The notes below the pieces were generated by a model. It was not told where the DNA came from. It saw nothing but the letters and a program-made list of their open reading frames with translations, and ran no database searches. Below, one piece after another: positions 8,249 through 50,961 of a stretch of 64,000 nt of DNA (position 1 is its first letter; each line of letters starts with the position of its first letter). A program made the position numbers and the translations under genes. The stretch lies in the NCBI GenBank assembly GCA_018175275.1, contig GCA_018175275.1_4531.1, one strand, 5' to 3'. Source of the stretch: a phage.

Positions 8249-8974
8249 ATGATCGAGAATTTTTTTAAAGATATTAAATTCGATACTGAATTTTTCAAAA
8301 ATGCAGCAAAGCACGTGATTGATTGGAATGCTAAAGCGCGAGGTGGTGAACAACCTGAATTTACTCAAGAGCTATTTATGTCCCAAATCGGGTTCGTTCG
8401 TGAAGAACTTAAAGAGTATGAAACAGCCGCGAAAGTAAACGATCATGTAGAACTCTTGGACGCAGCAGCAGATATTTTTGTAGTATCCAGTTATCTGACT
8501 TACATGTTCTTTGGTGAAGAACATACGATGAATTTCTTGGACTATACTGTAGGTGATGTTTTTACTCCGACTGTGTATACTGACTTTGATGCTTTGGAAC
8601 AAACATTTACAGAGCCAGTTCAAATGGCACTAATGGCTGCTGGTATTATGCGTATGTCTCGTGACACTCTCATTCGTTCAAAATATCCAGAAAAGAAAAT
8701 TATTAAAGAAGTATTGAAAAGTAACGATTCCAAGTATCCAACTAAACAACAGTTGCTGAAAACTTGGAAAACTTCAGATATCGATTCAGCCATTGCACAA
8801 GAATGCACTGCAATTGAAGAACGAAACGCCAATCGTCCAGAAGGAGCATACACGGGTGTTCATGCTGTTTATAATGAAAAACAGAAAGTGTATGTGTTCT
8901 TTGATGATAAAGGTAAGATCATGAAGTGGTCAGGTTTCATTAAACCCAACATTGCAGCTATTATCAAAAAATGA
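8249..8974 (+). CDS. hypothetical protein, possible MazG-like all-alpha NTP pyrophosphohydrolase
   Basis: 241 aa; EELKEYE...ELLDAAADIF pattern reminiscent of MazG/dCTPase EExxE...D motifs; AAGGAG upstream. Confidence 0.4.
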   Translation: MIENFFKDIKFDTEFFKNAAKHVIDWNAKARGGEQPEFTQELFMSQIGFVREELKEYETAAKVNDHVELLDAAADIFVVSSYLTYMFFGEEHTMNFLDYTVGDVFTPTVYTDFDALEQTFTEPVQMALMAAGIMRMSRDTLIRSKYPEKKIIKEVLKSNDSKYPTKQQLLKTWKTSDIDSAIAQECTAIEERNANRPEGAYTGVHAVYNEKQKVYVFFDDKGKIMKWSGFIKPNIAAIIKK

Positions 8975-9612
8975 TAGGTTCAACAAAGGGAGATTTTAGA
9001 ATCTCCCGTCTTTCTGAAACCAAGATTGACAATCAAACTACTTTTGTATGTTTATGCTTGGTATGCCAAAAAGAAAGTTTAAGAACATTGTCCAGTCTGA
9101 AAAGATCAAAGAGTCCGAAATGCATGTATTGTAGTAAGGGCGATGGCCTATCTAATAAGGAACGATATACTTACGAAAGTTATCGTAATATGCTACAAAG
9201 GTGTTATAATGAAAATTGTGAGCACTATGATAGATACGGTGGACGAGGAATTACTGTTTGTGATGATTGGAAGAAATCATTTAACACTTTCTTGAAAGAC
9301 ATGGGTAAGCGACCTAAAAACCATAGTTTAGATCGTGTAAATGTTGATCTTGGTTACAGTAAAGAGAATTGCAGATGGACAACACAAAGTGAACAGATTC
9401 GAAACAGAGGTAAAACAAAAAGCAAGTATTCAAATTTTAGGGGAGTCTCCTATGACAAAGCTAAAAATAAATGGCTGGCTTTTATTTGTTTCGATAAGAA
9501 AACAAAATATTTAGGAAGATATACTACAGAGTTGGAAGCGGCTGAAGCTTACAATCTCGAAGCATTAGAGTTAGGTATGTCTAACTATTTTTTAAATACC
9601 CGTTTTAAATAG
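8971..9612 (+). CDS. HNH homing endonuclease with AP2-like DNA-binding domain
   Basis: SLDRVNVDLGYSKENCRWTT (HNH_3-like) followed by FRGVSYDKAKNKWLAFI...YLGRYTTELEAAEAYN (AP2-like). Confidence 0.65.
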   Translation: MIGSTKGDFRISRLSETKIDNQTTFVCLCLVCQKESLRTLSSLKRSKSPKCMYCSKGDGLSNKERYTYESYRNMLQRCYNENCEHYDRYGGRGITVCDDWKKSFNTFLKDMGKRPKNHSLDRVNVDLGYSKENCRWTTQSEQIRNRGKTKSKYSNFRGVSYDKAKNKWLAFICFDKKTKYLGRYTTELEAAEAYNLEALELGMSNYFLNTRFK

Positions 9613-10503: not shown

Positions 10504-10532
10504 TTGACTTGCGGGATTAGTTATGATATTAT
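10504..10532 (+). promoter_or_regulatory. sigma70-type promoter
   Basis: TTGACT-17 bp-TATTAT. Confidence 0.45.
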
Positions 10533-10566
10533 GCCTACCTACCTACTTAATGAGGTAGGCTTTTTA
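10533..10566 (+). terminator. rho-independent terminator overlapping promoter
   Basis: GCCTACC...GGTAGGC stem followed by TTTTT. Confidence 0.5.
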
Positions 10567-10575
10567 GGAGGCGTT

Positions 10576-10785
10576 ATGAAAAAGATTCTGACAGTCGTTC
10601 TTTTAGCTTTTAGTTTCACAGTAGCAGCAGGTCAAATTACTTTAATCTTGTCTGATTCTGAAGTTAATGGCAACACAAAATATTGCTACTATTCTAACGC
10701 TAACCAAGATGAAGTTATAGCAATCCCGAAAAGTCGTCAATGTCCGTATACTAAAACATTCTCAACAGAGGATGACGATGAATAA
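10576..10785 (+). CDS. small secreted protein
   Basis: Internal ATG of track ORF 10504..10785 with TTAGGAGG upstream; signal-peptide-like MKKILTVVLLAFSFTVAAG; two Cys. Confidence 0.55.
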   Translation: MKKILTVVLLAFSFTVAAGQITLILSDSEVNGNTKYCYYSNANQDEVIAIPKSRQCPYTKTFSTEDDDE

Positions 10786-10797
10786 TTAGGGGGAAAT

Positions 10798-11916
10798 ATT
10801 AGCGGTTATATTTTAATTAAACCTGAAGATCTTCATTTATATGTCAACGAAGAAACAATAGCTGCAATTGATTATGATCAGATCGCTTTCCAAGCAGCGT
10901 CTGCATTAGAGAAAAGAACAATCATTGCGAAGCACATCCCTTCAGGTGCTCAAAAGGAATTTAAAAATAAGACAGAGTTTTGGGGTAAAAGCAAGACTAA
11001 AATTGGAGGTTGGCTAGGAGACACAAATGCAGAAAGAGCCTCCAAAAACAAACGTCCCTTCACAAAGGAAGAGTTCGAAATTATTGATAAGCAATACCCG
11101 CCAGAAGATATCGGACACACCTTCCAAGCAGCTAAAACAAAAGTCTTAGGTATTCTAAAACATCTACGTTTAGAAAAATATTGCGGAGTTATTGGCGTAG
11201 GAAAAACTTTCAGACACGCCTTCAAAATGCCTGTAGAATATAAATCTGAACGATTAGATATCAAACCACTTCAGCTTTCAGAAACCAAAGATTATCTTGT
11301 GGAGTTTCACAATGGTGATGTTGTTACTGTAATAGAAGCTGATGATGAGTTAGAGAAGTATGGTTTCCAAGGTTATAAAGATTATAAAAGGACGGGTAAA
11401 TTTTCTTATATCGTAGTGTCTATAGATAAAGATAGTTTACATACTCCTAGTATCCTTTTTAATTTCTACAAAGAGGATGGAGTATTTAAAAATCCAGATA
11501 TAATTCTTATTGACGAGTCTATTGGCGATATATGGATCGTAGATAAAGGTAAAAAGAAAGAAGTTAAAGGTTGGGGCAGTTACTGGTTAGCATATCAGAT
11601 GCTAATGGGAGATAAAACAGATAGTATCCGACCTTATCAAGATTTTGATATTAAGTTCGGAGATATTACTTGTTTTAATCTTCTTTCAGCTTGTAAAACT
11701 CAAGCAGAACTTTTCCAAACAGTTAAAGATACTTACTACTCATGGTTCCCAGATGGTGTTAATTTTACTTCTTGGGATGGAGAAGAAGTCCATATGACAA
11801 CAGATGAATGGATAGAAACAATTTTCCAGTTGGTATACATGAAACGCTGGGATAATGACGATACAACATTTGAGAGTATGCTTCAGTCATACATCTCGCA
11901 ACAGGAGGCAGAGTGA
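10798..11916 (+). CDS. rnh: RNase H / 5'-3' exonuclease (FEN family), start codon unresolved
   Basis: IAAIDYDQIAF, IEADDEL and LMGDKTDSI resemble T4 RNase H motifs as recalled; frame open from 10786 with no ATG/GTG/TTG until 11227. Confidence 0.55.
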   Translation: MSGYILIKPEDLHLYVNEETIAAIDYDQIAFQAASALEKRTIIAKHIPSGAQKEFKNKTEFWGKSKTKIGGWLGDTNAERASKNKRPFTKEEFEIIDKQYPPEDIGHTFQAAKTKVLGILKHLRLEKYCGVIGVGKTFRHAFKMPVEYKSERLDIKPLQLSETKDYLVEFHNGDVVTVIEADDELEKYGFQGYKDYKRTGKFSYIVVSIDKDSLHTPSILFNFYKEDGVFKNPDIILIDESIGDIWIVDKGKKKEVKGWGSYWLAYQMLMGDKTDSIRPYQDFDIKFGDITCFNLLSACKTQAELFQTVKDTYYSWFPDGVNFTSWDGEEVHMTTDEWIETIFQLVYMKRWDNDDTTFESMLQSYISQQEAE

Positions 11917-12872
11917 GCAGATTAACAGAAGAGCAGAAAGCAGATATCCTTAGTATGAGTGCAGAGGGTATGTCTTCTCGCAATATTGCAGCAATTGTTT
12001 TAGGTAGTCCAACAAGAAAAAGCACAGTGAACGATTTCCTTGCACGATTCGGAGCAAGTAAACAAGAGCCAGTTAAAAAGAAACAACCAGTTATTAAAAT
12101 TATTGATGTTGAAACTGCACCAGAGATTGCATATACTTTCCGTCGATTCAAAGCCTTCATTTCTCCAGATCAAGTAATTCGTAGGGGTTATTTGTTATCT
12201 TACTCTTCTGCCGACCTGCATACTGGTGAAGTGGAAGGTAAGAATTTGTCTTCTTATCCTCTTTTTGATATTGATCATACAGATGATTGGGAGCTTTGCC
12301 AAGATCTTTGGAACCTTCTGAATGAGGCAGATGTAGTTGTGGCACACAACGGGTATAAGTTTGACCGTGCATACATTAACCAACGATTTGCATATCACGA
12401 TATGGCTCCTCCTTCTAATTATGTAGTTGTTGATACATTGAAGGCAGCTAAGAAACAATTTGCACTTCCTTCCAACTCCCTTAAAGAAATGGGAGCATAT
12501 TTCGAAACAGAAAGTGAAAAACTGGATAACGAGGGGTTCCCTTTATGGAAAGCATGTTGTGAAGGTGATCGTGATGCTTTTGAACGTATGCAGATTTACA
12601 ATGATGGTGATGTTGTTTCACTCCGTGATTTGTATATGAAAATCCTTCCGTGGATTCCACAGCATCCTAACTTATCCGCTTATTACCCAGATGAGAAGGT
12701 CCGTTGTTCTCGTTGTGGCAGTGATCACGTTCACGTTGTTACTGGTAAACAATACCACACTGCGGTAAGTTCTTTCGATATCATTCGTTGTGAATCTTGC
12801 GGCGGTTTGTCACGTAGTAGAGCAAACACCAGATCCAAGGATAAACGAGCAGCAACTATCATTGGAATCTAA
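11913..12872 (+). CDS. DEDD-family 3'-5' exonuclease with N-terminal HTH and C-terminal zinc ribbon
   Basis: Exo motifs IIDVETAP, VAHNGYKFD, YNDGD; CSRCG...CESCGG; GTG start after AGGAGG. Confidence 0.6.
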   Translation: MSRLTEEQKADILSMSAEGMSSRNIAAIVLGSPTRKSTVNDFLARFGASKQEPVKKKQPVIKIIDVETAPEIAYTFRRFKAFISPDQVIRRGYLLSYSSADLHTGEVEGKNLSSYPLFDIDHTDDWELCQDLWNLLNEADVVVAHNGYKFDRAYINQRFAYHDMAPPSNYVVVDTLKAAKKQFALPSNSLKEMGAYFETESEKLDNEGFPLWKACCEGDRDAFERMQIYNDGDVVSLRDLYMKILPWIPQHPNLSAYYPDEKVRCSRCGSDHVHVVTGKQYHTAVSSFDIIRCESCGGLSRSRANTRSKDKRAATIIGI

Positions 12873-24078: not shown

Positions 24079-24914
24079 CATATCTGGTATTGGGTGGTAA
24101 TGGACAACTGGGACAAGCTTTACGTAAAGTGGCTCCTTCAAATGTGTCTTTAATTTATCCTAAAGAACGTGTAGATATTACAAATTTTGAAGCTGTGCGA
24201 AACGCTATTGTTGAAGATTATGTAGATGGTGTTATTAATTGCGCTGCTTATACGGCTGTAGATAAAGCAGAACAGGATTTTGCTACTGCTTTGGCTGTTA
24301 ATGCCTATGGCCCTGCAAATATTGCGGCAGTGTGCAGCAAACTTAAAATTGATTTTGTGCATATTTCTACAGACTATATTTTTAATTATTCTCATCCTAT
24401 TTTTGAAGACACTACACCTAACCCGATAAACAATTATGGGTATACGAAAGAACTCGGTGAAAAAATGGTGCGAGGAGTTAACCCAAACGCATATATTATT
24501 CGAACAGCGTCTGTATATAGTGAATTTGGAAATAACTTTCTAAAAACCATGTTGTCTCGCTATAATGATGGACAACGTGATTTTATTATTGTTGCTGATC
24601 AGTTCTCTTGTCCAACATATGCCCCAGATTTAGCAGAAGCTATTTTTGAAGTATTAAAAACAGGTTGGTCAAGATCTGTAAAGACTTACCATTTTGCAGG
24701 AAGCCATCTTATTTCTTGGGCGGAGTTTGCGGAAAAGATCTTGACACAGATGCCAGAACCTGTTAAGATATCGGCGGTATCAGCTTCAACCTATAATGCT
24801 CCAGCAGCACGTCCGGTGAAGTCACAATTAGTAACCAGTCACTATCTTACAAAATCAGATTTAAATAAAGGTATTGAACGGTCTTTAGCAGTATTACTTA
24901 ATAAGGAGAGGTAA
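24072..24914 (+). CDS. rfbD: dTDP-4-dehydrorhamnose reductase
   Basis: N-terminal LVLGGNGQLGQAL; 280 aa; start overlaps rfbC stop. Confidence 0.75.
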   Translation: MLTYLVLGGNGQLGQALRKVAPSNVSLIYPKERVDITNFEAVRNAIVEDYVDGVINCAAYTAVDKAEQDFATALAVNAYGPANIAAVCSKLKIDFVHISTDYIFNYSHPIFEDTTPNPINNYGYTKELGEKMVRGVNPNAYIIRTASVYSEFGNNFLKTMLSRYNDGQRDFIIVADQFSCPTYAPDLAEAIFEVLKTGWSRSVKTYHFAGSHLISWAEFAEKILTQMPEPVKISAVSASTYNAPAARPVKSQLVTSHYLTKSDLNKGIERSLAVLLNKER

Positions 24915-50029: not shown

Positions 50030-50251
50030 CTACTCCGAAAGAACATTCACTTCATCAGAGAAAAATACGTAATCACAACCTTCCCAAACATCTTCTTCAA
50101 ACCACTCCCATCCCTCAACTTTGGACATTTCTTCTATCGTAACAAAGAATGTTGTCATGTCATCGCTAACAAGATGTGCTTCAACAACAAAAGGAATCTG
50201 AACATTCTCAAAACCAACATAACCCAATACATCACAAACTCTAATTTTCAT
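50030..50251 (-). CDS. hypothetical protein (paralog of 53581..53802)
   Basis: Shares W-x-W...EG-DYVFF segment with 53581..53811; AGGAG upstream. Confidence 0.55.
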   Translation of the reverse strand: MKIRVCDVLGYVGFENVQIPFVVEAHLVSDDMTTFFVTIEEMSKVEGWEWFEEDVWEGCDYVFFSDEVNVLSE

Positions 50252-50252
50252 A

Positions 50253-50441
50253 TTATGCTCCTTTGTAGATTATGTTGGTGCGTTCACACTCTGCCACCAG
50301 CAAGCGATTAGCGATGTTGTCCATAGGAACATCAATCTCTACGCTCCAGGCATTGATATACACTTCTTCAATCTTTGCTCCAAGCGTTTGTGCGATCAGG
50401 GCAACAGCCCCAGCATATTCAAGTTTAATCTCTATTACCAT
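50253..50441 (-). CDS. hypothetical protein
   Basis: Internal ATG of track ORF 50253..50453 with GGTG upstream. Confidence 0.45.
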   Translation of the reverse strand: MVIEIKLEYAGAVALIAQTLGAKIEEVYINAWSVEIDVPMDNIANRLLVAECERTNIIYKGA

Positions 50442-50455
50442 TTTGCACCTCAAGG

Positions 50456-50656
50456 TTATTTATCTTGCTTGTATCTTACAAGGCGATCACACTCCAGGTC
50501 AAGAAATTTCTCCGCATTTCGTTCATGTTTGAGCACAATACATTGTTCTTTCCAGTCTGTAGCTCTTTGCTGCGCTGCTCCTGGGTCAAAATCCCAAAGC
50601 CATGCCGCGAAAAGAACAACCATAACAATTACCAAGAAACTAAACACTATTGGCAT
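50456..50656 (-). CDS. small membrane protein
   Basis: Internal ATG of track ORF 50456..50692 with AGGAGGATG upstream; TM segment IVFSFLVIVMVVLFAAWLW. Confidence 0.5.
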   Translation of the reverse strand: MPIVFSFLVIVMVVLFAAWLWDFDPGAAQQRATDWKEQCIVLKHERNAEKFLDLECDRLVRYKQDK

Positions 50657-50961
50657 TGCACATCCTCCTGTGTAGCATGATCTTTTACCCATTTTATACG
50701 GGCAGCATTCAAATGTAGCAGCCCGTTTCTTTGTGCAAAATCATATTTAAACCAATCCCCATCATCAAACGGGTATTCTTCAGACAAACCTGCTTCGCGG
50801 AATTGCATTTGCATTTCATAATTTAGGTCATCATAACCACCAGACCAAAGATAGAGGCAACTACATAATCCTTTATCATGCCAGAAAGGATTATTATCTG
50901 GAGCACCAGCTAACAGCCAGTTATGATATGCCTGATAAAATTCTTTAAGTTCCTCTGACAT
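50647..50961 (-). CDS. paralog family A protein
   Basis: YHNWLLAG, GLCSCL, PFD, RIKWVKD; AGGAGGT upstream. Confidence 0.6.
   Translation of the reverse strand: MSEELKEFYQAYHNWLLAGAPDNNPFWHDKGLCSCLYLWSGGYDDLNYEMQMQFREAGLSEEYPFDDGDWFKYDFAQRNGLLHLNAARIKWVKDHATQEDVQCQ

Follow-up and report, generated by a model that had tools for sequence, protein, structure and literature searches.

The subject of this analysis is a stretch of phage DNA of 64,000 nucleotides (nt) (contig GCA_018175275.1_4531.1 of NCBI GenBank assembly GCA_018175275.1; the whole stretch is called the window below), and in it a gene on the plus strand, at 10798-11916, predicted to encode a 5'-3' exonuclease of the flap endonuclease (FEN) family with 372 amino acids (aa). 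Our analyses indicate that translation of this nuclease very probably starts at a near-cognate AUU codon, the ATT at 10798-10800, which stands behind a Shine-Dalgarno (SD)-like sequence. It is well supported that the gene is a natural example of a known exception, near-cognate initiation of the AUU type, and not of a new mechanism, and among phages it is an unusually clean case. Residue numbers count from ATT 10798 as codon 1.

An open frame lacking canonical start codons

Translation of the plus strand gives a frame of 376 codons that is open from 10786, directly 3' of the TAA at 10783-10785, to 11916 (TGA at 11914-11916). Its first 147 codons include no ATG, GTG, TTG or CTG, and the only initiator-like triplets among them are ATT, ATC and ATA. 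The first in-frame ATT is found at 10798 and the first in-frame ATG at 11227. A preceding reading of the DNA from its letters alone (the sequence-only reading) had described this frame behind the upstream TAA, with 147 sense codons free of ATG, GTG and TTG before the ATG at 11227; its coordinates all proved correct, and the absence of CTG can be added. In the long open reading frames (ORFs) of the window, ATG, GTG and TTG together make up 5.5% of in-frame codons, a frequency at which a run of 147 codons without any of them has a chance probability of approximately 2.4e-4. The remaining part of the same gene holds nine such codons in 229. The runner-up among the start-free leaders in the 64 kb is 55 codons long and belongs to an antisense frame of non-coding appearance. 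Two other long frames free of start codons, at 50223-50675 on the plus strand and 24150-24539 on the minus strand, were rejected as candidates, their translations being of low complexity and non-coding in appearance.

Strong purifying selection acts on the stretch upstream of the first ATG, as judged from a comparison with 14 relatives. Over its 143 codons the nonsynonymous divergence (dN) ranges from 0.09 to 0.47 while the synonymous divergence (dS) is saturated, and this pattern is like that of the rest of the gene. The 'exonuclease' profile of PHROG 107 (phrog_107) matches the open frame over aa 14-371, and in tblastn searches homology with other genera begins at residues 1-5. The codons for Asp25-Tyr26-Asp27 (within AIDYD, 10870-10878, plus strand), which supply the acidic residues of the first strand of the fold, lie 5' of any canonical start. 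Across 25 diverse homologues Asp25 never varies and Asp27 is kept in at least 90%, and both are invariant in 15 members of the clade described below. The proposal that this stretch is coding, with the segment IAAIDYDQIAF as the N-terminal active-site segment of a FEN nuclease, is upheld by these data, and the N-terminus looks indispensable.

Nearly all database records begin the protein at the ATG at 11227-11229 (one of 60 sampled differs), which is the first canonical start of the frame and gives a product of 229 aa; 10786-11226 would then be untranslated or a decayed remnant. We regard this as very improbable. No SD precedes this ATG (cttcaaaATG), and the residue that it encodes, Met144, is replaced by Leu in six relatives. 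Met144 sits between the conserved motifs GKTFRH and YKSER, both of which were aligned by hhalign with E. coli DNA polymerase I (Pol I), in the region of Pol I residues 60-80. The low chance probability of the start-free run, the purifying selection on the 143 upstream codons, the invariance of Asp25 within them and their integral place in a single-domain structure model also speak against a start at 11227. The ATG is probably merely an internal Met codon, and on the evidence of the aligned motifs a 229-aa product would begin inside the catalytic core, deprived of the first part of the catalytic domain.

An ATT codon behind a Shine-Dalgarno sequence

Only four codons separate the upstream stop from ATT 10798. 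An SD-like GGGGGA is located between them at 10789-10794 (plus strand), and the sequence reads GGGGGA-AAT-ATT, in agreement with the earlier description of a GGGGGA 3 nt upstream of the ATT. From the end of the GGGGG core to the ATT there are 4 nt, which is a functional spacing and the modal one in the window (31 of 80 crudely called genes), and AGGGGG could pair with the anti-SD sequence with one G-U pair. In the record of Escherichia phage ESCO13 (KX552041.2) a ribosome binding site (RBS) is annotated at this SD and the coding sequence (CDS) starts at this ATT. Within the 64 kb, 10798 is the sole site at which an SD and a near-cognate codon head an ORF of at least 100 codons without an adjacent canonical start, so the arrangement is a trait of the nuclease gene and not a habit of the genome. 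RNA folding of 10760-10860 yielded nothing beyond shuffled controls (z = -0.2), and thus no structural element explains the start. Initiation at ATT 10798 had been the leading possibility in the sequence-only reading, and it is now supported by the SD spacing together with the alignment of homologue starts. The predicted product would carry (f)Met-SGYILIK or SGYILIK at its N-terminus and would include peptides containing KPEDLHLYVNEETIAAIDYDQIAFQAASALEK.

A start slightly further downstream was weighed as well. The in-frame ATT codons at 10810 and 10816 are present in the gene and a protein begun at either would retain Asp25, but the GGGGG is 16-22 nt away from them. None of the other in-frame ATT, ATA or ATC codons of the window gene has an SD at usable spacing. 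Unlike the codon equivalent to 10798, those at 10810 and 10816 are not ATT, ATC or ATA in all relatives. Initiation at either is improbable.

Start codons of the homologous gene in related phages

The gene of the relatives was gathered from IMG/VR, Logan/ENA assemblies and metagenomes, and each start region was read. When the start regions of homologues from Vequintavirinae are read in this way, their starts align with the ATT 10798 codon. Phage CR3 begins with ATG-GGT-TAT-CCC, KB57 with GTG-GGA-TAT, phiTE with GTG-GGA-TAC (preceded by GGAGGAG) and the rV5-like phages with TTG-AGT, while the window gene reads ATT-AGC-GGT-TAT. A comparison with the starts in related phages had been proposed as a check on the gene, and its outcome is that the conserved N-terminus begins at the ATT-aligned codon and not at the Met at 11227.

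The clade around the window gene comprises 32 distinct proteins, Stephanstirmvirinae-like, down to approximately 50% identity with the window protein. At the homologous codon ATT is found in 13 of them, ATC in 10, ATA in six, CTG in one and TTG in two, with no ATG or GTG, so that a near-cognate start codon is present in 30 of the 32. On a neighbour-joining tree, Fitch parsimony recovers ATT as the ancestral codon and 10 later changes, zero of them to ATG or GTG. Nearly all relatives have GGAGG or GGGGG as an SD core at 4-5 nt 5' of the start codon. The ATC start codon of L017, L059, L060 and L062 is abutted by an in-frame TAA, which makes a protein start further upstream impossible in these four relatives. 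We also considered a frameshift from a short overlapping frame that starts with ATG (ATGACGATGAATAATTAG) and rejected it, since homology begins at the ATT-aligned codon and a stop abuts that codon in the same four relatives.

Outside the near-cognate clade the gene also tends towards weak canonical starts (L007, L008, L009, L051 and L073), with TTG in rV5-like phages and two metagenomic lineages, and GTG in KB57 and phiTE. These codons hint that low initiation efficiency may be favoured for this nuclease more broadly.

Readthrough, sequence error and reinitiation

Two ORFs of the window, that of the secreted protein upstream and that of the nuclease, share one frame with a single TAA between them, and two 'fusion' proteins are found in databases (P0005 and P0092). 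Readthrough of the TAA at 10783, fusing the secreted protein to the nuclease, had for this reason to be weighed. However, Justusliebigvirus and L013 have the upstream gene in a different frame from the nuclease, and two in-frame stops are present in L017, L018, L019 and L059-L062. A signal peptide on a replication nuclease would be biologically senseless, and the homologues start at the aligned codon. Readthrough, which the sequence-only reading had listed among its possibilities, is contradicted by the relatives that are out of frame or carry double in-frame stops, and we hold it to be highly improbable. Both fusion proteins, P0005 (444 aa; L025:1501-2835) and P0092 (379 aa), were rejected as artefacts of gene callers in which TAG is read as Gln; L025 has a plain TAG stop. 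Judging from its reading frame, P0092 appears to derive from contigs whose SD run is G6 and not G5.

Removal or alteration of a canonical start by an error of sequencing or assembly, also raised in the sequence-only reading, is the least probable explanation and can practically be set aside. Nothing speaks for it other than the oddity of the gene and one pair of short metagenome contigs with G6 for G5 in the SD run. Sixty-five Phapecoctavirus genomes, which come from independent laboratories, share the 60-nt start region (54 at 99% identity or more, 11 at 95-99%), and the same near-cognate architecture recurs in approximately 30 diverged lineages.

A different question is how ribosomes are delivered to the AUU. 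In termination-reinitiation, ribosomes finishing at the UAA at 10783-10785 would restart at the AUU, 12 nt further on; this changes the delivery of the ribosome but leaves the start codon as it is. The stop of the upstream ORF lies 0-20 nt before the near-cognate start in every relative examined, abutting it in four, and published reporters attribute 40-50% of initiation on the second cistron to reinitiation at gaps of 3-20 nt, including the infC arrangement UAA-GGU-AUU (PMC3592434). Tight stop-start spacing is usual in these compact genomes, however, most genes of the window being packed in this way, and is therefore unspecific. The upstream gene also varies, being a DNA methyltransferase in L033, and the conserved strong SD is needed more by de novo initiation. 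Reinitiation as the main mechanism is accordingly a possibility that we rate as real but doubtful, and initiation at AUU 10798 is the reading on which both modes of delivery agree.

A divergent exonuclease of the FEN family

The identity of the protein had to be established from profiles and predicted structure. A Pfam scan of the window protein gave no match to PF02739 (5_3_exonuc_N) and nothing meaningful otherwise, and a single-sequence search of the PDB with the window protein gave no match. With both searches empty, profile comparison, fold search and hhalign were needed. In 11 of 25 homologues PF02739 scores 24-28 bits, and so misses the gathering threshold of 34.3. AlphaFold2 models the 372-aa product as a single confident domain (mean predicted local distance difference test score, pLDDT, 95.5), with Asp25 at the end of the strand 16-25, where the local pLDDT is approximately 98. 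In Foldseek searches the best matches are the T5 D15 flap endonuclease and E. coli ExoIX (probability 0.99-1.00), followed by full-length mycobacterial Pol I (6vde, probability 0.97), with template modelling (TM) scores on the target of up to 0.60 overall. Using hhalign, the alignment with E. coli Pol I residues 1-320 reaches a probability of 95.4% (E 1.6e-8); E180, D182 and D183 pair with Pol I E113, D115 and D116, D210 and D212 pair with D138 and D140, and the GKTFR...YKS motifs are aligned. The homologue profile also matches 9l56 and Taq.

The protein is, on the strength of these profile and fold matches, a divergent member of the FEN or 5'-3' exonuclease superfamily, to which T4 RNase H also belongs. 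The name 'RNase H homolog' given to it by the sequence-only reading is right in the T4 RNase H sense and wrong if taken as RNase HI or HII. The acidic metal-binding cluster typical of the family is present, including an acidic residue that ends strand 1; beyond this strand, the remaining invariant acidic residues in the alignment of 25 homologues are E180, D182, D183, D210, D212, D272 and D275 (codons within 11335-11622, plus strand). By order and secondary structure Asp25 would be the equivalent of Pol I D13, and conservation and topology would place it in the active site. One deviation from the FEN cluster was found in the hhalign alignment, where the position of the Pol I catalytic Asp63 is taken by an invariant Gly133 (11194-11196). 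Strand 1 carries a DxD (Asp25-Tyr-Asp27) rather than a single Asp, and the two features together may reflect a relocated metal ligand. Relative to known FEN nucleases, the protein has an insertion of approximately 60-80 aa after the first strand and helix.

In its fold, its acidic metal-binding cluster and its setting among replication and recombination genes the protein resembles T5 D15, T4 RNase H, the 5' nuclease of Pol I and ExoIX. It differs from these nucleases in its sub-threshold Pfam scores, the insertion, the Gly at the D63 position, the DxD of strand 1 and the non-canonical start.

Gene neighbourhood

Matches to the region, at 95-99.7% identity, come from 65 GenBank records of phAPEC8-like phages (Phapecoctavirus, Stephanstirmvirinae). 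The gene setting is one of replication and recombination, with RdgC encoded upstream and a DnaQ-like exonuclease downstream. The latter gene (11913-12872, plus strand), for a 3'-5' exonuclease of the DnaQ/RNase_H_2 type, is in the same operon, and its GTG start overlaps the nuclease stop (GTGA), an overlap that suggests translational coupling of the two nucleases.

The ORF that ends at the TAA 12 nt before the ATT (10576-10785, plus strand) is in the same frame as the nuclease and encodes 69 aa with a signal peptide, two Cys and an acidic C-terminus (...TFSTEDDDE). Most relatives also have it at this place, with rdgC on one side and the nuclease gene on the other; in relatives it is annotated as a hypothetical protein, and a Pfam search with it gave no hit. 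A secreted protein is unusual within a replication and recombination operon.

Upstream of this ORF, a pattern match identified a sigma-70-like sequence at 10504-10532 (plus strand; TTGACT, 17 nt, TG-TATTAT; 10 of 12 consensus positions with an extended -10) as a candidate operon promoter. It is followed by a terminator-like hairpin with a T-run (10538-10565, hairpin 10538-10559, plus strand), at which one GenBank relative has a terminator annotated. The hairpin begins within 6 nt 3' of the promoter-like site and lies just 5' of the SD and ATG of the small ORF. It may serve as the terminator of rdgC, in overlap with the next promoter, or form a stem-loop at the 5' end of the transcript.

Further upstream, the ORF at 8971-9612 encodes an AP2 DNA-binding domain of the homing-endonuclease type and one relative has it annotated as 'HNH endonuclease'. 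A DNA match over its full length is found in only six phage records, versus 65 for the adjoining region, and this distribution suggests that the ORF is probably a mobile insertion upstream of rdgC.

Database annotation of the nuclease

The ATT start is already annotated in one GenBank record. The ESCO13 record (CDS ESCO13_00118; AQM50955.1 / YP_009786567.1) lists an identical 372-aa 'putative exonuclease' from the same ATT, with the RBS feature. It differs from the present analysis in being an annotation only, given without evidence, clade comparison or rationale, and the genome announcement of ESCO13 is silent on the ATT start (PMC5374246). Of the 127 matching records, 60 were examined as a spread sample, and among these ESCO13 alone has the ATT start; the Phapecoctavirus records checked list 229 aa. 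In the one record inspected for Justusliebigvirus, that of ESCO32 (L005:601-700), the protein is started at an internal GTG and has 344 aa, 32 codons short. Two other records also depart from the start regions as we read them. The phiTE protein (L008:577-640) is probably annotated too long, from an ATG upstream of the SD-preceded GTG, and in PATM (L055:1322-1546) a spurious CDS on the minus strand covers the N-terminal region. Literature searches on phAPEC8, Stephanstirmvirinae, ATT or AUU starts in phages and non-canonical starts of flap endonucleases returned no paper on the start of this gene. The case gains further from the conservation of the weak start throughout the clade and from the systematic misannotation of the gene.

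Proposed mechanism and comparison with known AUU starts

In the mechanism that we propose, the SD-like GGGGG(A), with its core 4 nt upstream, would position the ribosome on AUU 10798, and ribosomes that have just terminated at the UAA 12 nt upstream may contribute to initiation. Initiator tRNA would presumably read the AUU with a third-position mismatch, giving an N-terminus of (f)Met-Ser-Gly-Tyr in which the insertion of fMet is our inference. E. coli tolerates over-expression of 5' nucleases such as T5 D15 poorly. By analogy with the systems described below, the regulatory purpose of combining a weak codon with a strong SD would most likely be to keep a nuclease prone to do harm at a low level, to make it sensitive to initiation factor IF3, or both.

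AUA, AUC, AUU and CUG are the four near-cognate codons that initiate in E. coli at approximately 1-2% (0.02-3%) of the level of AUG, and infC and pcnB are the only AUU genes listed there as confirmed (10.1101/063800). IF3 represses AUU starts, and infC keeps AUU or AUC across bacteria as part of its autoregulation (PMC5499595). In E. coli the infC AUU is 3 nt from the thrS stop and about half of its initiation is re-initiation (PMC3592434). In pcnB, the AUU restricts the supply of an enzyme whose excess is harmful (Binns and Masters 2002, cited by both PMC3592434 and 10.1101/063800). Since AUU, AUC, AUA and CUG are weak and discriminated against by IF3, a conserved weak start probably limits the nuclease or makes it IF3-sensitive.

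Like infC, the phage gene has a long-conserved near-cognate AUU or AUC, of the codon class rejected by IF3, behind an SD and a few nt after the preceding stop. Unlike infC, whose product is the discriminating factor itself and is autoregulated, the phage nuclease has no known link to IF3, so that a dependence on IF3, if any, would run in one direction. ATA and CTG are also among the starts of the phage clade, and the phage start is known from sequence alone. The closest functional analogy is with E. coli pcnB, in which an inefficient AUU also holds down a potentially harmful nucleic-acid enzyme. Other phyla also have AUG, GUG or UUG as the start of pcnB (10.1101/063800), whereas the phage clade has no ATG or GTG in 32 lineages, and the phage gene is viral.

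Several points weigh against the proposed start or against the regulatory role suggested for it. The SD of the window is GGGGG and not GGAGG, and that of one relative, L077, is AGGA only. Literature searches returned no proteomics or ribosome profiling on the N-terminus for these phages. TTG occurs in two nested lineages, in which it arose once, so a weak canonical start is tolerated. None of approximately nine third-position changes is to G, which under a naive neutral model has a probability of approximately 0.03-0.1; the absence of ATG in approximately 30 lineages is suggestive of avoidance and not statistically decisive. The weakness of AUU itself varies, from 6-8-fold below AUG (PMC3592434) to approximately 50-100-fold (10.1101/063800), which leaves 'low expression' unquantified. 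Finally, the rationale of toxicity and IF3 sensing is drawn wholly from analogy.

Implications

The shortened nuclease, which is deprived of the first active-site strand, is listed in more than 100 public genomes of Phapecoctavirus, Justusliebigvirus and their relatives, and such entries mislead functional annotation, structure prediction and phage engineering. A start that is beyond the reach of standard gene callers is in turn a useful test case for annotation pipelines. The series of ATT, ATC, ATA, CTG, TTG, GTG and ATG at one homologous position makes the selection of weak starts testable. Beside infC and pcnB, the phage gene would be a natural third AUU case, on the same ribosomes.

We tentatively suggest, by analogy with these two genes, that in this clade of large virulent enterobacterial phages the flap endonuclease may have been held since the common ancestor behind a strong SD and a near-cognate start as a selected, IF3-sensitive throttle or timer. 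If this were true, the gene would be a viral counterpart of infC and pcnB control, in which, during infection, synthesis of the nuclease is coupled to the condition of the initiation machinery of the host.

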